Shown here: in pieces, positions 1,504 through 49,459 of the stretch
Position numbering within the stretch: the stretch's first letter is position 1
Layout: each line of letters begins with the position of its first letter
NCBI GenBank assembly: GCA_017620015.1
Contig: JAFZRE010000001.1
Coordinates: 35,968 to 99,967, forward strand
From: Bacteroidales bacterium
GTDB taxonomy: Bacteria; Bacteroidota; Bacteroidia; Bacteroidales; ML635J-15
DNA length: 64,000 nt
Reading direction: 5' to 3'
Position numbers and translations under genes: made by a program
The notes under the pieces: generated by a model
The model's database searches: none
What the model was told of the DNA's origin: nothing
The model's input: the letters and a program-made list of their open reading frames with translations, nothing else

Positions 1504-1715
1504 AGGCTGCACCGTTTGATGGGCTTCGCCCGTTTCTAGGTTTGATGGCTAACGCCGTTTGAGTGTTTAACTTCGTTGAGGGCTACTTGTGCTGAGCGCA
1601 GTCGAAGTACGCCGTTCACGTTTCTATGGCTAAAGCCGTTTCTAAGTTTCTATGGCTAACGCCGTTTCAATGTTTCAATGGCTGCGCCGTTTGAAGTGTT
1701 TATAGTTTCCAAATT

Positions 1716-1741
1716 GTAGAAACGTTGCGTGCAACGTCTAC
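1716..1741. repeat. REP-like GTAG-headed palindrome
   Basis: gtagaaACGTTGCgtGCAACGTctac: a 7-bp inner stem plus a 4-bp GTAG/CTAC outer stem with a 2-nt bulge. Confidence 0.8.
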
Positions 1742-1855
1742 TATGTTTGAATGTTTCACGTTTCTATGGCTAAAGCCGTTTCTAAGTTTCTATGGCCAAC
1801 GCCGTTTCAAGGTTTCAATGGCTGCGCCGTTTGATGGTTTTATAGTTTCCAAATT

Positions 1856-1881
1856 GTAGAAACGTTGCGTGCAACGTTTAC
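1856..1881. repeat. REP-like GTAG-headed palindrome (second copy; the outer stem has one G-T pair)
   Basis: gtagaaacgttgcgtgcaacgtttac. Confidence 0.8.
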
Positions 1882-1905
1882 TATAGCGTCGCCACAGATT
1901 AGCCC

Positions 1906-1985
1906 ATTATCCATTGTTAATTATCCATTATCCATTGTTAATTATCCATTGTTAATTATCCATTGTTAATTATCCATTGTTAATT
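1906..1985 (+). repeat. 14-bp tandem repeat ATTATCCATTGTTA (5 full units plus one 7-bp half unit)
   Basis: Read directly: attatccattgtta/attatcc/attatccattgtta x4. Confidence 0.95.
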
Positions 1986-6185: not shown

Positions 6186-6202
6186 GGATTCGCACGTTTA
6201 TT

Positions 6203-6270
6203 GGTTCAAGGTTCAAAAGTTCAATGTTCAAAGTTTAAAGTTCAAAGTTCAAGAGTTTAAGAGTTCATTG
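6203..6270. repeat. degenerate period-8/9 word array GTTCAA(A/G)(A/G)
   Basis: ggttcaag gttcaaaa gttcaatg ttcaaagt ttaaagttc aaagttcaag agtttaag agttcatt, between the convergent gpx and M64 genes. Confidence 0.85.
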
Positions 6271-6278
6271 GCAGACGT

Positions 6279-8235: not shown

Positions 8236-8262
8236 ACACTAATCTACCAAATCCACACCATC

Positions 8263-8465
8263 GTCATTTACTTGCTTCGCTGCGTGAGCTAAAGGTACGG
8301 AAGCTAGTCGGAACGCGCGATACGGTAGTGGAGCGTTGTGAAGACTGCTATCCGCAATCTCCTTTGATTACTAATGGGAGATTGGCTACGCCGAGCTGAA
8401 GGTACCGTACAAACAGGCTCACACGACACGTTCCTTAGTCGGTTCGCTTTGTTTTACGGAATGAC
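8263..8465 (-). ncRNA. candidate structured intergenic element, copy 1 (about 203 nt): long imperfect hairpin with an apical 8-bp stem-loop
   Basis: Helices GTGAGC(8284-89)/GCTCAC(8417-22), GTACGG(8295-8300)/CCGTAC(8405-10) and CAATCTCC(8355-62)/GGAGATTG(8377-84). Both ends are homologous to the element at 24498..24617. The strand is assigned only by analogy with copy 2. Confidence 0.35.
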
Positions 8466-8476
8466 ATTTCCTTTTT

Positions 8477-9169
8477 TCAATGACCTTTAATCAGCCACAA
8501 TAAGAGCATTAACGCCCCCAACACTACAATCACAATAATGTAATGTTTCATTTTCGCTCTATTCAACTTCTTTTCAAACTCCTCGGAACCAACCACTTCT
8601 TCAGGATATTCTCTTCTAACTTTCTCCTCAATAAGTTCATTTCCAACATCACCAATAACATGATGCCTATCGGAATAATTATGTGTTGCAAAAAATGACA
8701 TTGTATAGTCGGACGCAAGTTTCTCAGCGAGTTTTTCTACCTCCTCGCGCTCAGCCTCATACTTTGCCGACCATTCATCGAAGGACAATTCCTTCAGCCC
8801 CGACTTATCCATTATATCCGACTCGTCGCCATTCCAGCGCAAAGCGGCATCGCCCTCGTAAACCTTGACGATTTGCTTTTCGGCCACGTCAACCACAACC
8901 ATTAACGGATGCCATTGCGTATATTTCTCTGGCAGAATTTCGGCATCATACTCATAGAATCCGTAGCAAGCCGACAAGAGCAGACAGTCACCGTCTTCGT
9001 TCCACAGATAATCGTGCTTGCCCATAATGAAATAGAACGGCAAAACCATGCATTCGGAATCATCCTTTTTTGAATACACATGAATGTTACTATACATCTC
9101 CCGTCCTACGGATTCCTCGCCTATAGCTTCCTCGAAACCAATATTGTACAAGCTTGATTCGTTTGCCAT
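8477..9169 (-). CDS. hypothetical tail-anchored membrane protein (acidic cytoplasmic domain plus one C-terminal TM helix)
   Basis: 230-aa ORF ending in HYIIVIVVLGALMLLLWLIKGH. I recognise no family motif. Confidence 0.55.
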   Translation of the reverse strand: MANESSLYNIGFEEAIGEESVGREMYSNIHVYSKKDDSECMVLPFYFIMGKHDYLWNEDGDCLLLSACYGFYEYDAEILPEKYTQWHPLMVVVDVAEKQIVKVYEGDAALRWNGDESDIMDKSGLKELSFDEWSAKYEAEREEVEKLAEKLASDYTMSFFATHNYSDRHHVIGDVGNELIEEKVRREYPEEVVGSEEFEKKLNRAKMKHYIIVIVVLGALMLLLWLIKGH

Positions 9170-9185
9170 AAATGGATGTTTATGT

Positions 9186-9287
9186 GTTTCTGGGTTTCTA
9201 AGTTTCTGAGTTTCTGTGGCTATCGCCGTTTCTGAGTTTCTATGTTTCTGGGTTTCTAAGTTTGAATGTTTTACGTTTATATGTTTG
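9186..9287. repeat. degenerate period-8 word array GTTTCTNN with one embedded TGGCTATCGCCGTTT mini-hairpin
   Basis: gtttctgg gtttctaa gtttctga gtttctgt ggctatcgcc gtttctga gtttctat gtttctgg gtttctaa gtttgaat gttttac gtttatat gtttggg. Confidence 0.85.
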
Positions 9288-9325
9288 GGCGAACAGGCTA
9301 ACAGGCTAACGGTCTGGACTGGCGG
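9288..9325. repeat. period-8 word array GGCTAACA / GGTCTGGA
   Basis: ggcgaaca ggctaaca ggctaacg gtctggac tggcgg. This is the reverse complement of the CTGTTAGCC words seen at 22819..22900 and 28311..28410. Confidence 0.75.
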
Positions 9326-9326
9326 T

Positions 9327-9354
9327 GTAGCAACGCGCCATGGCGCGTTGCTAC
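9327..9354. repeat. REP-like perfect 28-bp palindrome GTAGCAACGCGCCATGGCGCGTTGCTAC
   Basis: Perfect reverse-complement symmetry checked base by base. The terminal CTA (9351..9353) is the stop codon (TAG on the minus strand) of the M23 peptidase gene. Confidence 0.9.
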
Positions 9355-10559
9355 TTCGCCAGCCAGTTTGCTGGATTCAAAGTTGCACTTCCCTTCCAGA
9401 TTTCGAGATGGAGCACAGTCTTGTTTTCTGCATCGTCGGTATAAATCTTGCCGATTGCCTGCTTTGCCTTCACCTTGTCGCCTACCGAGACATAAACCTT
9501 GTCGATGTGAGTATATACACTCAAATATTCACCATGCCTGATAATCACAGCATTCTGCGTTCCAGGAATCGAAAATACCTTGCGAACCTCGCCATCGAAC
9601 ACCGCACGTGCGTCGGAGCCAGTAGTCGTAGAAATGTCGATGCCCTTATTGTCAATTTCCACGCCCGAAATCACCGGATGCGGCTGCTTTCCGAACCGCG
9701 ACACAATAACACCGCGCTGTACAGGCCACGGCAACTTGCCCACATTGCTTCCAAAGTTGTCGCTGACAATCTTTTCCTCGGGCGTAAGTTCGTACTTGCC
9801 AGTGTTTGCCTTGCCCTTCGATGCCGACGACTTCTTAACTTCCTCGGCAATCAACTTTTCGATAGCCGCCTGCAACTGCTGCTTCTGTTTGTTCTTTTCG
9901 GCGAGTTGCTTCTTCAGGTCGGCTTCCTTGCCCTTCAGTTTGGCAAGCGTATTTTCCTGCTGTTTCTTGGCGTTTTCAAGATTTTTGGCTTCTACCTTTT
10001 CCTCGTCTAGCAGTTTTTGGTGTTCAGCCTTTTGTGCCAAAAGTTTTTCCTTCTGCCGTTCGAGAAAGGCTTTAATTGCATTTATTGCGATAAGTTGGCG
10101 TTTGCGGTAATCGGCCATCTGCTGCATATACTTCAGACGCAAATACGACTGGTTGAAATCCTTTGACGACAGCAGAAACATAATTTCATTGTTCTTGTTC
10201 TGGTTTTTCCAAGCAATCTGCAACATACGCGCATACGACTGCTTCAAGTTCTCCAAATCCTCCGTCATCATTGCTATGACTGACTCTGTCTCCTTTATAC
10301 GCCCCGAAACAAACTCTATTTCGTTGTTAATGTCGGAGATAAGTTCCTTTCGTGAAGAAATCTGGCTTCCAAGCAAGGCAAGATTATTTTCCGACTCCTT
10401 CTGGTTCTTGCGCGTCTCCTCTAGAAGCTTATTGGTATAGTTGATTTCGTTTATAGTCTTCTTCTTTTTCTTTTCAAGGTCGGCCTTTGTCTGTGCCACC
10501 GAACACAACGGCAGCATAAAAGCAATGAAAAGGAACAATATTTTAGCGGTTATCTTCAT
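9351..10559 (-). CDS. M23-family murein DD-endopeptidase / EnvC-like activator with long coiled coil
   Basis: Signal peptide, then about 230 aa of K/E/Q-rich coiled coil. The C-terminal LytM domain carries GIDISTTTGSDARAVFDGEV...IIRHGEYLSVYTH...LHLEIW. Confidence 0.85.
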   Translation of the reverse strand: MKITAKILFLFIAFMLPLCSVAQTKADLEKKKKKTINEINYTNKLLEETRKNQKESENNLALLGSQISSRKELISDINNEIEFVSGRIKETESVIAMMTEDLENLKQSYARMLQIAWKNQNKNNEIMFLLSSKDFNQSYLRLKYMQQMADYRKRQLIAINAIKAFLERQKEKLLAQKAEHQKLLDEEKVEAKNLENAKKQQENTLAKLKGKEADLKKQLAEKNKQKQQLQAAIEKLIAEEVKKSSASKGKANTGKYELTPEEKIVSDNFGSNVGKLPWPVQRGVIVSRFGKQPHPVISGVEIDNKGIDISTTTGSDARAVFDGEVRKVFSIPGTQNAVIIRHGEYLSVYTHIDKVYVSVGDKVKAKQAIGKIYTDDAENKTVLHLEIWKGSATLNPANWLAK

Positions 10560-14141: not shown

Positions 14142-14246
14142 AGTATTCCTAATTTACAATAAAAGACAAAGGTAAACCTTTTATTTATATGTATAGCGAA
14201 TATGGTTATTTAGTTGTCAACAATGGAATGTTGTCAAAACAGCGGA

Positions 14247-17200
14247 CTATTCAACCACTATCTGCTCAACATACACCTTTTCGCCACTGATAATTCTTAA
14301 AAAGTAAGTACCTGCGGTAAGATTGTGGTTGAAATTCATTGTTGCACCATCCATAACATTTATATCGCGAGTTTCAACAACTGCGCCATTAACATTGATG
14401 AGTTGGTAGGTTACATTGCCTTCGATACCATAGAAAACTATACTGAACATACCGTTGTTCGGGTTCGGATGGATTGACATTGAAGGTTCTTCTGTCATAT
14501 CAACCGAAACAACCGATTCAAATGTGGCGTGAATAGTATGGTCTTCGGTCACATTGGTAAAAGTATAAGTATTGTTTTCAAGGTCAGCCATTACCGATAC
14601 ACCATCAACCATTACATTTTCAATGCGGTAGCCTTCGTCAGGAATAATACTGAAAGTCTGGTCTTCACCCCTATTAAAGGTAATTATGCCACTAGGATTA
14701 ATTGCCCCATGCGCCCCTGCCGTCGCAGATATTGAGAGTGTTTGTAGCGTAATGTTGCGACTCCATATACTATGCTTATCTCCACAAATCCCCATAATCT
14801 GTACATCATATTCAACACCCTGCTCCAAGCCAGTTATTTCATACGATGTCTCCGTAGTCTCAACTTCCACCCATTCTCCAGCAGGAACATTTTCTCCTTC
14901 TATCTCAAAATCATCTATATTTAAATGCCCTGTACCTGAACTATTATAATGGCGGATTGCAATATAACCCAAATGCCAGTTATATGAACTCAAATCTACA
15001 CTATATTCCATATATTCATCAGTAGCAATAGTTTCGGGCAATACCTGCGTATTAAAATCCGATACCGACCACCTGCCCGTTGTTGAGACATATATGCCAA
15101 AATGCTCATCAGAAGAAGAATTATTTTGAGACTTTACCCATATTTTTAAACTTCCATTTAAAGCAAGTCGTGGAGACACTAACCAATTGTCTTGTACAAC
15201 TGGTGAGATTTCATAAGGTGGATAACTCAATGATGACACACAACCCGTTCCCGAATGGCTATCCATCATTCCGTTTATAAATGATGTCCAACAATATCCA
15301 TCTCCATCATTATCAATTGTTGACCACCCATCACTATTATGCAAATCCTCGAAATCTCTATAATATGAGCCGTTTATTTCCGCTGCTCTATATCTTAATA
15401 TATAACTGTCGCTGGTGCCCTCCCAACTTACATTTGCGGAATTGGCATTTGCCTCTACATAAATATCATTCGGAGCATAGCAATCAGCAAGAGTAGTAAA
15501 TGTTACCACACTAAACCCACCTTGTTCCGAACCGCAATTTGAACGTACCCACACTTCGTATTCCGTTCCTTCTGTAAGATTTGTAAGTGTATATGTAGGA
15601 TTATCTACTTCAATGGCATTATCAAAATCGTAATTTATATAGACCAACCAAGATGTAACATCCACATTGGCAGACCATGTGATTATTGCATAAGTAGTGT
15701 CAACGATTGAAGCTGTAAGATTAGCAGGAGATGGACATCTCGCTAGAGTGCTAAATGACCCTGCTTTCCAATAACTATATCTGTTTTCGTCACACAATGA
15801 CCTCACAACAACACTATAACGTGTGTCACGTTCAAGTCCTGTAAAAGTGTATTCGTTATCATATACATCAATAATATTGTCCAGGTTGCCATTTAAGGCA
15901 ATTTGCCACATGTTTTCATTTCCTATTGCATTCCAAGAAACTGTTGCTGAATTCATGCCGATATTAGAAAAAGAAAGATTATTCGGAGCTGTACATGCAT
16001 CAAAAATTGTAAACGACAAATCTGGAGACCATCTGCTGAATCCGTCTTCTTCGCAGTTTGTACGCACTTTAACAGTGTAGTTCAATTCTGGAGAAAGGTC
16101 AGTTAATGTATATGTAGTGTATTCGACATTAATAATTTCATCTTCATTATCGTTGATACAAATCTGCCAGGAATTTTGTCCTATCCATCCATTCCAAGTC
16201 AAATCTACAGAATTTGCATCAATAATGGATACTCTAAGATTAGTAGGAACGGGGCATACTGCAGCAGTAGTAAATGCTACATTCGCAGTCCAATCGCTAA
16301 CACCATTGCTTTCACCACAATTTGCGCGCACCTTGACTGTATAATCCGAATCTTGAGAAAGGTCAGTTAATGTATATGTAGTGTATTCGACATTAATAAT
16401 TTCATCTTCATTATCGTTGACGCAAATCTGCCAAGCAGTTTCGTCCGCGCCTGCAGTCCATATAATTGTTGCTGAATTAGTAGTAATACTAGAAACGTTC
16501 AATGCAGAAGGACGCATACAATGGCAATCAACCATATAGTTAACTGTTGCCATAGCACCAGTGCCAGATAAAATTTCATCGCCATTCACATCATATACAG
16601 CATACGAGCATTCGTTATCAAATGAGCCGGAAGACCATACAAAACTGATTTCCCTGCCGTTGCAAACCTGAAGTGTGCCAGTTATGTTGCTAATACCTAT
16701 TTCCATAGTCAAGGCGGTTAAAACTCTTCCCGTCTCAACATCTACCACATTGATAGCTGCATCGTTCCAACTGTCGCCAAAACGGTCGGACAGGGAATAA
16801 CTTATTTCGCACATTTCATCATCACCGCATATATCAGTATAGAATGCGACTTCGGAACTTGCTTCACTTTGCTCGCTGTCGCTACAGTAGGCGCGGATTT
16901 TTATAGTGTAGCCAGTAGCGGCATCAAGTCCTGTAAATGTGTATGACTTTGTTGTCGTTCCTACGGGAGCAGTTGCAAAGTCGTTCCAAGTTATGCCATC
17001 ATCCATTGTATATTGCCAAGCAGTTTCGTCTCCTACAGGAGTCCACGAGATAACAGCGGAATTGTTAGTAATATTTGATACCTCCACATTAATCGGACTC
17101 GGACACGACACAATGGGAACTACCTCAACGTCATCAACATACACAAACGAACCACCAGCAGGGTCGTTCAGACATATAGCAATTCTTTCTGCATCAGCAG

Positions 17201-20054
17201 AAACATCATTCAAAAGCACAATATATTGCCGATAGTTTGTTGTAAGCGCAAACGATTCCAAAGGAGTAAACTCGCCATTCGCGACATATCCAACCTGAAA
17301 GTTCTCAGGAACAGAATCGTTATACCTTGCCCAGAACGAAATCATCAAGGTATTAATATCCGACATCTGTGGCAAGGCTAATACATTTTGCTGGTTGGTT
17401 CTTGATGTATGCATACATATAGCTTGCAAACCGCTATGTGAGGTGGTGGTGGACAAACTTTGACCGACAATATACGGATATAGATCATTACTTACAATAC
17501 GCTCCCAACAACGAGGAATAATCCTACTCGAATTATAGAGTGTTATGCCATCTAAGTTTTCTGTATATGGAATGGCTTGGATACCACATCCAGAGACAAA
17601 CGAAACCATCACCCATTCGTCATCACCTCCTCCACGGCAAACAGCCTTTACATAAACATCGTAGCTTGTATTTGCCAAAAGACCAGTGATTGAATATGAA
17701 GTTTGGGCAATATTCTCCACCGAAGTCCCTTCGGATTCGACATCAAATCCAGAAATACCATATTTCAGTTCCCATTCGACATCTTGCCGACCTGTCCAAG
17801 TTACATCGGCAGCTGTAGCAGTAATGTTCGAGGCTGTCAAGTTTAAAGGCTTTATATAATCGAGCCTTACATTGTCGATATGAACATTAACATCACCACC
17901 TGCCACAGTTGACTCTCCATAAAACGCAATCTTAACATAGTCTGAACTATAGTCCGTCAGACCGATTATAACCGTTTCGCCTGCGGTAGCAATGTTATTA
18001 TACACATACTCGGAACCAGCATTGTCGTACTGGCGGAGAATCGTCCAAGTTGCACCATTGTCGGTACTGATAAGGACAGCAAATTTATCATCCATCTGCT
18101 GAGTTGTGTTAACTGGCTGCAAAGTCCCTGAAAATTGCGTCAGAGCCAAATCAAAAGAAAGCTGTACACAATCATCCATAACAATATTGGGAGTTATCAG
18201 CCATTCTTTGCGAGAATTTCCCCATAGATTAACAATGGCATGCTTATCGAACACTCCATTAGATGACGACAATCCCCATCCGCTGCTAGACGTGGAAGTG
18301 AAATAGCCCCCGTCCATTACACTAGAAAGAAGACCCTGACGTTTTGACCAGTCGGGAATAGATGTTGCAAAATCCTCGACGAATGGAATCCCATATTTTG
18401 TGGAAAATTCTAATGTTCTCCACGCTGCTGTCCAGTCAGAATCACAGTTGGATTGAATCTCTACAAAATAATCCGTACCACTATTAAGCCCTGTAAGTGT
18501 GTATGTAGTAGAAGTTATCCCGTTTACACATGTATAATGGTCAGCCGAAGTTGCCTTGTATTGTATATTCCACATAGTTTCGTCATAAGCGGGAGTCCAC
18601 GATAATGTTGCCGAATATACGGAAGGTGAACATGTAAAATTTTCTGGTGGCGGACAATTGGAAAGAGTAGCAAAATACCAATTGCTTGTCCAATTGCTGT
18701 ATCCATCTGCATCGCAGTTTGCGCGAACCTTTACCCTATAGTTGGTACTTAACGAAAGACCGGTAAAAGTGTATTCATTAGAATCAACATCAATAATATT
18801 TTCTTCGTCATCGTTAAGGCAAATCTGCCATTCGGTTTCATTTCCACCAGCCTCCCAAGTTACAAATGCAGTAGTCTTACCTCTAGTTACAGACAGTCCA
18901 GTTGGAACAGGACAAAGCGGAATAGTTGTAAAGGACACATTGCTAGTCCAGTTGCTATACCCTTCTTCTGCACAATTTGCACGTACCTTAACATTATAAG
19001 TGGTTTCTGGAGTCAATTCTGCCAAATCATACGAATTCGCATTTATATCAATCAAGCTGTCTTCATCGTTGTTAATACAAATCTGCCAAGCCGTCTCGTT
19101 CGAACCCTCTGACCACGATAAGCTTGCCGTTGTAGCACCTATGTTCGATACTGCCAAGTTTGTTGGTCTAAAACAAGAAATAAGAGTTGTGAAAGAAATA
19201 TTTCTAGTCCAATTGCTATATGAACCGTTTCCACAACTTACCCGAACCTTTACATTATACAAGGTTTCTGAAGTTAAGCCTGTCAATTCGTATGCATTTG
19301 AATTTACATCAATTAGGTTGTTTTCGTCATCATTCAGACAAATCTGCCAAGCGGATTCACCGTCTTCTGCAGTCCACGAAACATAAGCTCCGTGAGCTGT
19401 TACATCACTTACCGAAACAGATGAAGGCCTAAAACAATGTCCTGTAGCGGGAGTAATGCCAAGTTGAATGTCATTTTGCCAAGTAACTGCATAATTAAAA
19501 ATACCGATGTTGCTGATGTCTGGAATTTGAGAACTACCATAAATTATAAGAGAAACCGTTTTATTCGTAACATAAGAACACCTAAATTTATAATTGTTAT
19601 CATAGTGCCCATTTGTTGTATCATACATACAAATCAAAAGGTTGTCTATTCCATTGTATTCAAACGGGGTATCAAGACTGAGAGTAAACCAACCCGGTTC
19701 GGTAGCAGCGAAATCTCCATCATAAACCAATGTGGCGGAGTCAAGGGCAATAACATCGCGACCATCTACAAACTCACTTTTTGCGGTATGCATCATATAC
19801 ATCAGAATCCCCGACATAGAGAATGGCGATGTATAATCATAATAGAAACCGACAGATGAAATTGTTCCTGCAATTCCAATATCTTCAACATTAAAAATCT
19901 GCTGTGTGAACGAGTAATTGTAGTCCATGCGTATAGGCAAATCATAAGATGTACGGGCACCATCTCCAATCTCCACAATTTCTTGTGAATGCATATCCAC
20001 AGAAAAGCATAACACTGACAACAACAGAATTATGGAATATAATAACTTTTTCAT
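14247..20054 (-). CDS. giant (1935 aa) T9SS-secreted surface protein with about 13 fibronectin-III-like modules, three larger beta-sandwich modules, a divergent InlB B-repeat and a T9SS C-terminal sorting domain
   Basis: Signal peptide. Recurrent module ...WQICxNDxEDxxIDVxxNxYxLTGLxxxTxYxVKVRAxC.... Near the C-terminus, GYRIENVMVDGVSV...YTFTNVTEDHTIHATF. It ends with ...TAGTYFLRIISGEKVYVEQIVVE, typical of a Por_Secre_tail domain. Confidence 0.9.
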   Translation of the reverse strand: MKKLLYSIILLLSVLCFSVDMHSQEIVEIGDGARTSYDLPIRMDYNYSFTQQIFNVEDIGIAGTISSVGFYYDYTSPFSMSGILMYMMHTAKSEFVDGRDVIALDSATLVYDGDFAATEPGWFTLSLDTPFEYNGIDNLLICMYDTTNGHYDNNYKFRCSYVTNKTVSLIIYGSSQIPDISNIGIFNYAVTWQNDIQLGITPATGHCFRPSSVSVSDVTAHGAYVSWTAEDGESAWQICLNDDENNLIDVNSNAYELTGLTSETLYNVKVRVSCGNGSYSNWTRNISFTTLISCFRPTNLAVSNIGATTASLSWSEGSNETAWQICINNDEDSLIDINANSYDLAELTPETTYNVKVRANCAEEGYSNWTSNVSFTTIPLCPVPTGLSVTRGKTTAFVTWEAGGNETEWQICLNDDEENIIDVDSNEYTFTGLSLSTNYRVKVRANCDADGYSNWTSNWYFATLSNCPPPENFTCSPSVYSATLSWTPAYDETMWNIQYKATSADHYTCVNGITSTTYTLTGLNSGTDYFVEIQSNCDSDWTAAWRTLEFSTKYGIPFVEDFATSIPDWSKRQGLLSSVMDGGYFTSTSSSGWGLSSSNGVFDKHAIVNLWGNSRKEWLITPNIVMDDCVQLSFDLALTQFSGTLQPVNTTQQMDDKFAVLISTDNGATWTILRQYDNAGSEYVYNNIATAGETVIIGLTDYSSDYVKIAFYGESTVAGGDVNVHIDNVRLDYIKPLNLTASNITATAADVTWTGRQDVEWELKYGISGFDVESEGTSVENIAQTSYSITGLLANTSYDVYVKAVCRGGGDDEWVMVSFVSGCGIQAIPYTENLDGITLYNSSRIIPRCWERIVSNDLYPYIVGQSLSTTTSHSGLQAICMHTSRTNQQNVLALPQMSDINTLMISFWARYNDSVPENFQVGYVANGEFTPLESFALTTNYRQYIVLLNDVSADAERIAICLNDPAGGSFVYVDDVEVVPIVSCPSPINVEVSNITNNSAVISWTPVGDETAWQYTMDDGITWNDFATAPVGTTTKSYTFTGLDAATGYTIKIRAYCSDSEQSEASSEVAFYTDICGDDEMCEISYSLSDRFGDSWNDAAINVVDVETGRVLTALTMEIGISNITGTLQVCNGREISFVWSSGSFDNECSYAVYDVNGDEILSGTGAMATVNYMVDCHCMRPSALNVSSITTNSATIIWTAGADETAWQICVNDNEDEIINVEYTTYTLTDLSQDSDYTVKVRANCGESNGVSDWTANVAFTTAAVCPVPTNLRVSIIDANSVDLTWNGWIGQNSWQICINDNEDEIINVEYTTYTLTDLSPELNYTVKVRTNCEEDGFSRWSPDLSFTIFDACTAPNNLSFSNIGMNSATVSWNAIGNENMWQIALNGNLDNIIDVYDNEYTFTGLERDTRYSVVVRSLCDENRYSYWKAGSFSTLARCPSPANLTASIVDTTYAIITWSANVDVTSWLVYINYDFDNAIEVDNPTYTLTNLTEGTEYEVWVRSNCGSEQGGFSVVTFTTLADCYAPNDIYVEANANSANVSWEGTSDSYILRYRAAEINGSYYRDFEDLHNSDGWSTIDNDGDGYCWTSFINGMMDSHSGTGCVSSLSYPPYEISPVVQDNWLVSPRLALNGSLKIWVKSQNNSSSDEHFGIYVSTTGRWSVSDFNTQVLPETIATDEYMEYSVDLSSYNWHLGYIAIRHYNSSGTGHLNIDDFEIEGENVPAGEWVEVETTETSYEITGLEQGVEYDVQIMGICGDKHSIWSRNITLQTLSISATAGAHGAINPSGIITFNRGEDQTFSIIPDEGYRIENVMVDGVSVMADLENNTYTFTNVTEDHTIHATFESVVSVDMTEEPSMSIHPNPNNGMFSIVFYGIEGNVTYQLINVNGAVVETRDINVMDGATMNFNHNLTAGTYFLRIISGEKVYVEQIVVE
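16091..16156 (-). repeat. 66-nt block identical to 16355..16420 (offset 264 nt, one FN3 module) inside the giant adhesin gene
   Basis: gagaaaggtcagttaatgtatatgtagtgtattcgacattaataatttcatcttcattatcgttga occurs twice, encoding ...NDNEDEIINVEYTTYTLTDLS... in two adjacent modules. Confidence 0.9.
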
Positions 20055-20123
20055 TTTTAAAATCCTCCTGTTTAATATTCGTAAAACTCAACATAAATAC
20101 ATTCATATTTTTACAATTCAATG

Positions 20124-20131
20124 CAAAGATA
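20124..20131 (-). promoter_or_regulatory. -7 box TATCTTTG upstream of the giant adhesin gene
   Basis: Matches TAnnTTTG on the minus strand, about 70 nt upstream of ATG 20054. Confidence 0.45.
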
Positions 20132-20520
20132 ATTTTTTTTTAGATACAAATAACATAATGCTCATTTTTTTATAGAGTGCATGACGGCACATAGGGTCCT
20201 GTTTGTACGAAACAACAAAGCGATGCCTTGAAAAAAGCATAGCAAAGCCATAATGTTTCAATGTCGCAATACAAAAACCAACAGCAAGCGACTAATAATA
20301 GCCTTATCAACCTTTAACCGCATAAAAACCGCTTTAGCCAGCGAGATTTTAAAAATTTTATCTAAATCCGCTGCATAACGCCACTTTTTTTACAAATACG
20401 CATGCCTATGTATGTGTTAATTTTTATAATCAACACCCCATCAAATTATTTTTTTTCGGTAATTTTTTTTTGGTAATTAAAATTTAATAATTATAATTTA
20501 CTGATTATCACTCTTTAAAC

Positions 20521-20600
20521 CATGAAACATAGAAACGCCGAAGGCATTGCAACTTAGAAACAGCGTCAGCCATAGAAACGGCTTCTGCCCCCATAAACTT
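20521..20600. repeat. GTTTCTNN / ATGGCT-N-GCCGTTT modules in inverted orientation
   Basis: The reverse complement reads ...gcagaagccgtttctatggctgacgctgtttctaagttgcaatgccttcggcgtttctatgtttcatg. Confidence 0.75.
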
Positions 20601-22721: not shown

Positions 22722-22900
22722 ATGGCCAACAGGCCCAAAGGCTAGCAGGCAAGAAGGCGAACAGCTTGCTAAGACGCAATTAATTGCATCCCAATATTAC
22801 ATAAATACCAGACATTAAGGCTGTTAGTCTGTTTGACCGCAAGACTATAAGACTGCAAGCCTGTTAGACCGTAAGACTGCGAGCCTTTTAGCTTGCGTCT
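22722..22900. repeat. word arrays GGC(C/T)A(A/G)CAGGC and GACTGCAAGCCTGTTAGACCGTAAGACTGCGAG (period 8) flanking an 18-bp near-palindrome
   Basis: Read directly. The near-palindrome gacgcaattaattgcatc is at 22773..22790. Confidence 0.75.
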
Positions 22901-28154: not shown

Positions 28155-28210
28155 GGTTTCAATGGCTGTCGCCGTTTATAAGTTCAATGTTCAACAGTTT
28201 AAAGTTCTAG
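28155..28210. repeat. ATGGCTGTCGCCGTTT mini-hairpin followed by GTTCAA/GTTTAAAG words
   Basis: ggtttcaatggctgtcgccgtttataagttcaatgttcaacagtttaaagttctag. Confidence 0.75.
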
Positions 28211-28233
28211 GGGTTGTATGCTTCGCACATTTT

Positions 28234-28262
28234 GTAGAAGCCGCAAAATTTTGCTGCTGTAC
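28234..28262. repeat. degenerate GTAG-headed palindrome
   Basis: gtagaagccgcaaaattttgctgctgtac: the same architecture with 2-3 mismatches. Confidence 0.5.
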
Positions 28263-28310
28263 AAACAAATAATTATATGTATGCGTTGAATTTTAGATGA
28301 TTTGATGACT

Positions 28311-28410
28311 ACTAGCAGTCAGTCTGCAAGACCGTTAGACTGCTAGACTGTGAGACTTTTAGCCTTCAAGCCTGTTAGCCTTTTGGCCTTCTAGACTGTC
28401 AGCCTTCTTA
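28311..28410. repeat. period-8 word array (TAGCAGTC AGTCTGCA AGACCGTT AGACTGCT AGACTGTG AGACTTTT AGCCTTCA AGCCTGTT AGCCTTTT GGCCTTCT AGACTGTC AGCCTTCT) running into the ispF stop codon
   Basis: Read directly. The ispF stop (28391..28393) and its last approximately 6 codons lie inside the array. Confidence 0.8.
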
Positions 28411-33610: not shown

Positions 33611-33636
33611 GTAGTCGTTGCGCGCAACGACACTAC
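33611..33636. repeat. REP-like GTAG-headed palindrome
   Basis: gtaGTCGTTGCGCGCAACGACactac: a perfect 18-bp core palindrome, with GTAG/CTAC outer pairing possible through a 2-nt bulge. Confidence 0.8.
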
Positions 33637-33637
33637 A

Positions 33638-33692
33638 AATTATTCCATTATCAATTGTGCATTGTCAATTATTCATTGTTCATTGTCCATTG
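33638..33692. repeat. period-7 word array ATT(A/G)T(N)C, related to the 14-bp repeat at 1906..1985, running into the MATE stop codon
   Basis: attattcc attatca attgtgc attgtca attattc attgttc attgtcc attg. The MATE stop is at 33673..33675. Confidence 0.8.
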
Positions 33693-49374: not shown

Positions 49375-49424
49375 GTTCAAAGTTTAAGGTTCAAAAAGTT
49401 CAAGGTTCAAAGATTTGAAAATTT
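49375..49424. repeat. GTTCAA(A/G)G word array
   Basis: gttcaaag tttaaggttcaaaaa gttcaagg ttcaaaga tttgaaaa, between convergent genes. Confidence 0.8.
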
Positions 49425-49459
49425 AGCTTACGCTGAGCTAAAGGTTGATGATTTGAAAA
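49420..49459 (-). repeat. partial third copy of the same element (core CGCTGAGCTAAAGGTTGATGAT)
   Basis: cgctgagctaaaggttgatgatt compares with cgcttagtgaactaagggttgatgatg (reverse complement of 24570-24600) and cgctgcgtgagctaaaggt (8278-8296). It contains the hairpin TTTAGCT/AGCTAAA. Confidence 0.4.

Follow-up and report, generated by a model that had tools for sequence, protein, structure and literature searches.

The window analysed here, a stretch of 64,000 nt from a Bacteroidales bacterium (GenBank assembly GCA_017620015.1, contig JAFZRE010000001.1, positions 35,968 to 99,967 of the forward strand), carries arrays of short degenerate words in its intergenic spacers, and the locus at 9186–9354 is one of them. 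These arrays are strictly extragenic, are restricted to one clade of rumen Bacteroidales and are present in about a fifth of the spacers. Their modules follow a polar order that is fixed from 5′ to 3′, and at orthologous sites the arrays change by gain or loss of whole units or blocks between conserved flanks. On balance, and with moderate confidence, these features are best explained by a lineage-specific, polar and mosaic system of non-coding repeats, which would be shaped by slippage or unequal exchange and by short-block copying, and whose palindromes may be tolerated or co-opted as transcript ends.

Occurrence of the arrays in the window and in related genomes

The word patterns GTTTCNNNGTTTC and GTTYAARGTTYAA have 11 and 7 matches in the window, against 0.27 and 0.07 expected; none of 100 shuffles reached 11 matches for the former, and no shuffle reached 7 for the latter. 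All of these matches are intergenic, and intergenic DNA represents 8% of the window (5,269 bases). An earlier reading of this DNA from its letters, referred to here as the sequence-only reading, had described the spacers as non-coding concatenations of a few shared degenerate words, and these counts support that description. The word arrays that it had located are all present, one of them (1504–1710) reaching 1884 through a tandem duplication of 140 bp.

The distribution outside the window was investigated with the 22-mer GTTTCNATGGCTNNCGCCGTTT, which describes the most complex unit and was scanned against 185,579 bacterial and archaeal species, each represented by one genome. More than 107 matching stretches were obtained, of which 102 are located in at least 14 species of uncultured rumen Bacteroidales/Bacteroidia, represented by metagenome-assembled genomes (MAGs) from cattle, buffalo, yak and red deer. 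Among the matches listed, five belong to unrelated phyla and look like coincidences in coding sequence, about four being expected by chance. The 22-mer had no copy in 2.9 million viral contigs, and a phage origin was ruled out on this ground.

The loci fetched around the 22-mer matches (hereafter related loci; single loci and contigs of the analysis carry L numbers) amount to 838 kb. Of this DNA, 85% lies in open reading frames (ORFs), yet no module is less than 90% intergenic. At least one module is carried by 51 of 239 spacers of the related loci (50 bp or longer, not selected by the scan) compared to 5 of 458 coding control segments of 200 bp. No array module was found in 342 kb of loci from distant relatives, taken around M64 peptidase homologues of at most 59% identity. 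Because of the clade-wide matches and the shuffle tests, the arrays can be regarded neither as confined to the window nor as words at the frequency that composition predicts. Chance and base composition were ruled out by shuffles, coding controls and out-group controls. An assembly artefact was likewise ruled out, since the same arrays are present in independent ENA and Logan assemblies and the vocabulary recurs in MAGs from several projects.

The arrays of the window are listed below (strand in brackets); by a rough sum of part lengths, they make up about a quarter of its intergenic DNA.

1504–1884 (+): array of GTTT(C/G) words and word-plus-mini-hairpin units, e.g., GTTTCTATGGCTAACGCC
1904–1985 (+): ATTATCC/ATTGTTA words of period 7 and super-period 14/21, the tail module of the 1504–1985 composite
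6203–6270 (+): about nine units of GTTCAAR/GTTTAAR words in a convergent spacer, directly 3′ of the stop codon of an M64 peptidase gene
9186–9287 (+): word array of GTTTCTNN words, period 8, with 13 GTTT-words
9288–9313 (+): word array of two to three GGCTAACA-type units
9314–9366 (no strand): extended 22-bp hairpin, the core of which (9327–9354) is a perfect 28-nt GTAG...CTAC palindrome, GTAGCAACGCGCCATGGCGCGTTGCTAC
20521–20600 (−): inverted array of GTTTC word-plus-hairpin units in a divergent spacer
22722–22900 (+): composite of GGCNNNNA words (22722–22765), a GACGCAATTAATTGC centre and inverted TNNNAG(A/C)C words (22818–22895)
28156–28410 (+): composite of a word-plus-hairpin unit (28156–28177), GTTCAA words (28181–28210), a TGTAG...GTACA palindrome (28233–28263) and TNNNAGCC-type words (28311–28410)
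33611–33692 (+): GTAGTCGTTGCGCGCAACGACACTAC hairpin (33611–33636) followed by ATTRTNC words (33638–33692) in a convergent spacer
49375–49446 (+): composite of GTTCAAR words (49375–49424), the dispersed module AGCTTACGCTGAGCTAAAGGTT (49425–49446) and GATTTGA words

Tandem repeat finding (TRF) reports the period-7/8 arrays with just 68–82% matches, plain words being mixed with units of 15–20 nt and with other modules. The array at 9186–9287 consists of eight GTTTCTNN words, broken once by GGCTATCGCC, and then five looser GTTT-words; it holds one word-plus-hairpin unit, GTTTCTGTGGCTATCGCC, at 9210–9227 (9210–9231 in the wider delimitation), and stops 17 nt short of the ATG of a minus-strand ORF (8477–9169). 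At this locus, the GTTT-words are followed by GGCTAACAGGCTAACGG and then by the palindrome, and on the minus strand the TAG of the palindrome’s GTAG is the stop codon of an M23 peptidase gene (9351–10559). In the 1504–1884 array, the 140-bp tandem duplication (95% identity) occupies 1615–1884, a conserved block, GTTTAACTTCGTTGAGGGCT...ACGCCGTTC, with a nested insertion of 24 nt is found at 1565–1617, and two TTGTAG...TAC hairpins are located at 1714–1741 and 1854–1881. The arms of the 22722–22900 element form a long imperfect inverted repeat.

Several observations concern the genes and assemblies around the arrays. A plus-strand ORF of 264 aa (9216–10010) has its start in the word array and continues in antisense across the M23 peptidase gene; this ORF is almost certainly not a real gene, and arrays can in this way seed false gene calls. 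The 230-aa ORF at 8477–9169 (minus strand) is without a Pfam match, was found on only 8 contigs and lacks a recognisable −7 box of the Bacteroidetes type; read-through of the 22-bp hairpin may be required for its expression in the window strain. A separate dispersed repeat at 8260–8410, in which the hairpin AATCTCCTTTGATTACTAATGGGAGATT is followed by GGCTACGCCGAGCTGAAGGTA, with a second copy of GAGCTAAAGGTA at 8287, matches spacers of L044, L054 and L082 with 85–90% identity over 54–64 nt and is not part of the word arrays. Two short-read Logan contigs of the same strain (L112 and L113, ending at about window position 1955) stop inside the ATTATCC array upstream of an alkaline phosphatase gene, the contig end of L003 is likewise listed among those broken by arrays, and in many MAG contigs with 22-mer matches the contig end lies no more than a few hundred bases from a unit.

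Unit anatomy, module order and placement

The spacing of successive GTTT starts is bimodal, with about 450 intervals of 7–8 nt and about 480 of 15–20 nt. Plain word arrays can be written as (GTTTCTAA)n. The long units, about half of the GTTTC units, consist of a word plus a mini-hairpin of 3–4 bp standing directly before the next word; the unit can be written as GGCGNAGCC-ATAGAAAC and its hairpin as GGCGAAGCC-ATAGAAAC. Stems are present as GGC-loop-GCC (204 copies), GCC-loop-GGC (55 copies), GGG(C)/(G)CCC and GTG(C)/(G)CAC, without cross-combinations. In the units of 17–18 nt, the middle stem pair is G-C in 214 cases, C-G in 55, C-C in 10 and G-G in none (Fisher p = 2e-48), and in the units of 19 nt the second stem pair is G-C in 34 cases and T-A in 10. 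These stem counts, though they are of copies, show that pairing of the two arms characterises the unit itself and was not simply inherited with a single sequence.

Of 315 loops, 240 have the form G..A when read on the GAAAC strand (GAA, GCA, GTA, GTCA, GTTA, GCCA), and the hairpins can therefore be described as GC-GNA-GC or GC-GNNA-GC. Compensatory stems and G..A loops together indicate that the mini-hairpin is a constrained part of the unit. The motif GCGNAGC/GCGNNAGC has been described as “mini-hairpin DNA” and is extraordinarily stable (PMC13037366).

Further modules recur in the related loci. A non-degenerate block of 29 nt, GTTTAACTTCGTTGAGGGCTTCGCCGTTC, contains two TTC-loop hairpins and was counted in 65 copies, and in the window copy (1565–1617) the 24-nt insertion lies in the second loop. 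Other recurrent modules are GCTTACGC(Y)GAGCTAAAGGTT, with a window copy at 49425–49446, GATTTGA words and CAAACAAC words. A terminator-like module, consisting of an A-run, a long GCGGAAT...ATTCCGC hairpin and a T-run, is set between GAAAC words; it was observed at L061:3330–3420 and L080:1870–1960, as well as in L034, L079, L105 and L107, some copies having GAGCTAAAGGTT nested in the loop.

The 28-nt palindromes form a family with fixed GTAG...CTAC ends and variable, self-complementary interiors (e.g., CGCGCCATGGCGCG, CGTTGCGCGCAACG and GCGCAATGCATTGCGC). A regular expression for TGTA[GC]...[GC]TACA without a pairing requirement was rejected as non-specific, and because of its 26 out-group matches a pairing-aware scan was adopted, which identified 14 strict members in clade DNA and none in the out-group. 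Looser relatives are located in the window at 1714, 1854, 28233 and 33611. The hairpin at 9314–9366 folds far better than shuffled sequences (z = −5.5, as RNA and as DNA), while the word arrays themselves are unstructured. None of the arrays matched an Rfam family, whether gathering thresholds or E-values of up to 1 were applied, and a hammerhead-like reading of a CTGAGCG...CGAAG insert was unsupported by Rfam.

Words are co-oriented inside a spacer, both orientations being found in only 5 of 62 rich spacers. When spacers are oriented by their GTTTC words, the GGCT/AGCC words stand after the GTTTC array (24:0), and so do the 28-nt palindrome (11:1), the ATTRTNC words (10:1, always in that orientation) and, where present, the inverted GAAAC arm (GTTTC...GAAAC in 6 cases, the reverse arrangement in 0); some spacers have GGCT...AGCC inverted arms, likewise without the reverse arrangement. 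Textbook examples of this order are found at 9186–9354 (GTTTC words, GGCTAACA words, palindrome) and at 1504–1985 (GTTTC units, hairpins, ATTATCC words). The mosaic of word families proposed by the sequence-only reading thus holds as far as the shared families are concerned, but the modules are not freely mixed, and the covarying mini-hairpin in about half of the GTTTC units had gone unnoticed.

The GTTTC end of the arrays lies at a median of 29 nt from the gene boundary (14 nt if this is a stop codon) compared to 87 nt for the other end (p = 3.5e-6). In tandem spacers, 24 arrays are in sense and 34 in antisense orientation, in agreement with the earlier claim that orientation is independent of the flanking transcription, and arrays are present in 16 of 65 convergent, 59 of 341 tandem and 12 of 74 divergent spacers. 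The Bacteroidetes −7 box, TAnnTTTG, resembles TAnGTTTC; arrays of promoters were ruled out, since the orientation is not tied to the downstream genes and arrays are found in all types of spacers. GC skew, calculated on 8-kb loci, showed no relation to array orientation in a weak and underpowered test.

Among the spacers downstream of gene ends, a canonical terminator (GC hairpin plus T-run) was identified in 24 of 116 with modules and in 66 of 155 without (odds ratio 0.35, p = 1.5e-4), the module-bearing spacers being also longer. This depletion and the position of the palindromes suggest, within the precision of home-made gene calls and a home-made terminator finder, that hairpin and inverted-arm parts may stand in for ordinary terminators. 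The same figures lend indirect support to the option of RNA 3′-end or insulator modules raised by the sequence-only reading.

Turnover at orthologous spacers and possible origins

In the spacer 9170–9350, no difference from the window is seen in three assemblies of the same strain, and the only contigs found with exact proteins are from identical strains. Within the species only identical strains were thus available, and variation was therefore read from relatives at 78–95% identity. In L114, whose flanking genes are 81–95% identical in nucleotides, the spacer keeps the palindrome and the segment AACATATAAACGTAAAACATTCAAAC but is without a GTTAGCC block of 29 nt and without another block, of 42 nt, in which one of the five GAAAC words carries a mini-hairpin. 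At the same site, L159 has at least nine AGCC-type words and essentially no GAAAC words, while in L116 the downstream gene (the orthologue of 8477–9169) is preceded by an ordinary promoter region, TAtcTTTG, without any array. Differences in copy number and presence, which the sequence-only reading had proposed to look for, are observed in L114, L159 and L116.

Directly 3′ of the M64 peptidase stop codon, nine TTGAAC words are found in the window, GAAAC-plus-hairpin units together with other modules in L115 and L116, GATTTGA words in L119 and L120, and none of these in L114, L117, L118 and L121. When the spacers at 20521, 22722 and 28075 are compared to RUG14538, RUG10760 and RGIG7873, the promoter-proximal DNA is 85–95% conserved and the array content is reshuffled; for the 20521–20600 array, two related species have the proximal units in common and differ in the distal ones. 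Orthologous spacers thus differ by gain or loss of whole units or by module swap, with flanks of 80–95% identity.

Tandem duplications of higher order were found in the window (the 140 bp mentioned above) and in L072 (26/86 bp). In an all-against-all comparison, different spacers of one genome were just 68–76% identical, and only the nested terminator-like module, with 92% between two loci of one genome, showed signs of recent copying. The duplications and the low identity between spacers point to rapid local expansion and contraction without a recent burst from a master copy, and recent transposition of a master element was ruled out by the same identity values. The sequence-only reading had set the arrays apart from slippage repeats; since orthologous spacers differ by whole units and higher-order tandem duplications are present, this distinction does not hold, and slippage or unequal-exchange dynamics appear to act on the arrays.

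Two larger differences between the window and its relatives were observed in the neighbourhood of arrays. Where the window has a 6.3-kb region (14240–20534) with an ORF of 1935 aa on the minus strand (14247–20054), the otherwise syntenic loci L046 (RUG14538) and L029 (RUG10760) have about 1.5 kb instead, so that this giant gene represents a strain- or species-specific insertion or deletion bordered by array-bearing spacers. In L114 (4224–5997), 1.77 kb replaces the 93-bp GTTCAA-array spacer (window 6186–6278) between the glutathione peroxidase and M64 peptidase genes; the flanking genes are 93–95% identical in nucleotides, and the insert contains an ORF starting with MEQLKNLPIGIQDFESL.

In the explanation that we favour, a composite grammar would run from 5′ to 3′ through GTTTCTRN words, about half of them with a GC mini-hairpin of 3–4 bp, GTTCAAR words, GGCTNNNA words or their inverse, the 28-nt GTAG...CTAC palindrome and ATTRTNC words. 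Arrays would grow and shrink via replication slippage or unequal exchange between direct word repeats, and the very stable GNA/GNNA mini-hairpins, if formed in vivo on the single-stranded GAAAC strand, may favour these processes. Short blocks of the vocabulary would be copied from spacer to spacer, through template switching or gene conversion, and a defined element would not have transposed recently. The elements would be largely selfish or neutral, their palindromes and inverted arms probably being tolerated, or co-opted as orientation-independent transcript ends that replace hairpin-plus-T-run terminators. Of the three options offered by the sequence-only reading, that of mosaic elements similar to repetitive extragenic palindromes (REPs) and bacterial interspersed mosaic elements (BIMEs) fits best.

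Several points weigh against this explanation. Slippage alone fails to explain why the same words recur in the same order in hundreds of unrelated spacers, in species that are 70–80% identical in nucleotides, and why GTTTC is fixed while the next 2–3 bases vary. No donor or copying mechanism has been demonstrated, and neither target-site duplications nor element ends have been defined. The covariation figures count copies and not independent events, the taxonomic range obtained with the 22-mer is a lower bound, and the gene calls and the terminator finder are simple, crude routines. As slippage alone does not account for the recurrence, there is room for arrays of protein-binding sites, for a BrickBuilt-like MITE (miniature inverted-repeat transposable element) and for a mechanism of HUH or REP-associated tyrosine transposase (RAYT) type that acts on single-stranded DNA (ssDNA).

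It is unlikely, yet worth considering, that the words are clustered sites for a clade-specific protein, either a DNA-binding (nucleoid-associated or insulator-like) or an ssDNA/RNA-binding one, in which case selection would fix GTTTC, GTTCAA, GGCT or ATTRT and the 2–3 spacer bases would drift. Each word family has indeed 4–6 fixed bases followed by 2–4 variable ones, the vocabulary persists across species despite the complete turnover of single arrays, and both the independence from transcription and the restriction to intergenic DNA would be expected. However, a candidate protein was not identified, several readers would be needed for the six or more unrelated word families, and copy number ranges from 0 to more than nine at orthologous sites with no sign of constraint. 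Simple duplex binding predicts neither the fixed module order nor the covarying mini-hairpins.

We consider it improbable that the composites represent MITEs containing a mini- or microsatellite, similar to BrickBuilt/MITEPgRS and mobilised in trans by the transposase of an insertion sequence (IS), followed by local decay and expansion. The polar architecture, the degenerate tandem core of variable copy number and the intergenic, lineage-restricted occurrence are shared with those elements (compare PMC4596501), and arrays form inverted arms in some spacers (GTTTC...GAAAC in 6 against 0 in reverse, and GGCT...AGCC likewise). On the other hand, there is no unique leader or tail and there are no conserved terminal inverted repeats (TIRs); upstream of the first word, the DNA of one copy is unrelated to that of the next, and the all-against-all spacer comparison revealed no shared termini. 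Among the very few close strains compared, no target-site duplications were seen, and orthologous sites differ by internal unit blocks or module content and not by clean insertion of a whole element. The identity between copies is low, and no IS with matching ends was found, although no systematic search was made.

Just as improbable, in our view, is that the arrays are the product of an active clade-specific “writer”, such as a hairpin-directed ssDNA nuclease/ligase or a template-switching polymerase, and not decaying junk. Such a writer would repeatedly set down a defined grammar in intergenic DNA (GTTTC words with GNA/GNNA mini-hairpins, other word families, a 28-nt palindrome), and a dedicated reader protein would use it to end transcription or to organise the chromosome in a lineage with few canonical terminators at these sites. 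If true, this would represent a new class of bacterial repeat system, and not a variant of REP, MITE or simple sequence repeats.

Still more doubtful is a role of the units as REP/REPIN-like substrates of an HUH tyrosine transposase (RAYT or IS200-like), which would recognise the mini-hairpin in ssDNA and cut at GTTTC/GAAAC, head-to-tail arrays arising from repeated insertion. The unit combines a hairpin with a fixed pentanucleotide and its stems covary as in REP families (PMC3733652), the loops belong to the type that is most stable in ssDNA (PMC13037366), and small hairpin modules are nested inside words and loops (e.g., window 1565–1617). The clade also encodes a RAYT (L109, 318–860, minus strand; 99 bits against NCBIfam REP_Tyr_transpos, cut-off 80), whose HLH...WQ...YIHNNP motifs fit subclass 2.6 of Bacteroidetes, described as flanked by “atypical secondary structures” (PMC6006769). 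Its flanks (241–300 and 899–925), however, carry a different family of hairpins with a conserved GATTTGCAATC loop and variable stems; 800 kb of clade loci contain 10 of these hairpins, the window none. This RAYT was therefore ruled out as the driver of the arrays, the family at its flanks being another and a rare one. Moreover, about half of the units are plain words of 7–8 nt without a hairpin, no high-identity copies are common to the spacers of one genome, and the link with GC skew was sought and not found in the underpowered test mentioned above.

The RAYT of L109 and its GATTTGCAATC-loop hairpins represent a separate small REP/RAYT system in the same genomes. A second gene, similar to Y1 transposases, was identified at L012:1900–2440 (plus strand; Pfam Y1_Tnp, 26 bits; NCBIfam REP_Tyr_transpos, 60 bits, under the cut-off of 80), with the motifs DHFH...WQ...YIKENP and no array or palindrome at its flanks.

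Least likely of all, a primary function at the RNA level would make the palindromes, inverted arms and A-rich GAAAC tracts selected 3′-end, stabiliser or insulator modules. It would account for the terminator depletion, for the window’s 28-nt palindromes downstream of gene ends (one overlapping a stop codon) and for the terminator-like module embedded in arrays, and REPs have been reported to stabilise and terminate transcripts (PMC3733652), but the word arrays are unstructured, are equally frequent in either orientation, are present even in divergent spacers that hold only promoters, are not conserved in content between orthologues and lack any Rfam match.

If the description given here holds, about one fifth of the intergenic spacers in a clade of abundant uncultured rumen Bacteroidales belong to one structured repeat system. 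Its arrays break short-read assemblies, as in the two Logan contigs that end inside the ATTATCC array, and create spurious ORFs such as 9216–10010. They also shift the distances between promoter, 5′ end and start codon from strain to strain and could serve as hypervariable strain markers. Because features that are usually separate are combined here, namely microsatellite-like heptamer/octamer words, REP-like covarying GNA hairpins and a fixed module order, the system is well suited for asking how short-word arrays seed at new sites. It can also be used to test whether Bacteroidota, which lack Shine-Dalgarno-led initiation and here have fewer canonical hairpin-plus-T-run terminators in array-bearing spacers, use the arrays as transcript boundaries.

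Relation to known repeat systems

A CRISPR array was ruled out, as the units abut without spacers and measure 7–20 nt against repeats of 23–50 nt. BOX elements of Streptococcus pneumoniae (boxA-boxB(n)-boxC) are likewise modular, polar and intergenic, with a variable copy number of the internal module; they differ in having modules of 45–60 nt compared to 7–20 nt here, have no sequence relationship to the arrays and belong to another phylum. No earlier description of such arrays in Bacteroidales was found in an incomplete literature search, which amounts to absence of evidence only.

With the BIME/REP clusters of Enterobacteria and Pseudomonas, the arrays share their extragenic location, high copy number and composition as mosaics of short palindromic units and other motifs, as well as compensatory stem variation, clustering with tandem reiteration and suggested roles in termination or mRNA stability (PMC3733652); the 28-nt palindromes, moreover, start with GTAG. 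However, a REP unit is an imperfect palindrome of 20–40 nt with a stem of 5–13 or 6–13 bp, whereas the dominant units here are words of 7–8 nt and units of 15–20 nt with stems of 3–4 bp, and only the separate 28-nt GTAG...CTAC palindromes fit the size of a REP unit. The GTAG/CGTC of REPs is an unpaired, one-sided tag (PMC3733652), while here GTAG is paired with CTAC and the word-plus-hairpin units have no tag. Head-to-tail dimers are rare in REP families, in contrast to the head-to-tail and mostly non-palindromic words described here. REPs flank their cognate RAYT gene, and none with the array repeats was found in the fetched clade loci. GTAG REPs were not reported in Bacteroidetes in the REP survey (PMC3733652).

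The earlier statement that no element class of this organisation had been described in Bacteroidota was too strong, since BrickBuilt and MITEPgRS of Porphyromonas gingivalis are polar, intergenic and degenerate tandem repeats (PMC4596501). Like the arrays, they belong to Bacteroidales, are always intergenic and polar, are confined to a narrow lineage and have an imperfect tandem core whose copy number varies widely and whose repeats contain both conserved and variable positions. They differ in their bricks of 23 or 41 nt, one kind per element, in the unique leader and tail, in the IS5-type TIRs and in the number of about 19 copies per genome, while the arrays combine several word families of 7–8 and 15–20 nt, have neither leader/tail nor TIRs and occupy about 20% of the spacers.

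The heptamer arrays of Xanthomonas (GGGAATC), Nostoc (GGGGA(C/T)T) and Calothrix (STRR) are similar in their period of 7, their presence in many intergenic regions and on both strands, the lack of preference with respect to leading/lagging strand or transcription, the position closer to one ORF and the variation in length between close relatives (PMC4692102). They consist of single G-rich words that form G-quadruplexes, whereas several AT-rich families, a fixed order, mini-hairpins and palindromes are found here. The GAAAC-strand hairpins GGC-GNA-GCC and GGC-GNNA-GCC contain exactly the GCGNAGC/GCGNNAGC motif of mini-hairpin DNA (PMC13037366), which denotes a physico-chemical structure, encountered in promoters and in phage and plasmid origins, and not a dispersed repeat family; its formation in the arrays is predicted from their sequence. 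As the features of REPs, of BrickBuilt/MITE elements and of heptamer arrays are each shared only in part, the arrays are not a member of any of these named families. The system still belongs to a general phenomenon, that of mosaic intergenic repeats specific to one lineage, in which its grammar and its GNA mini-hairpins are noteworthy.

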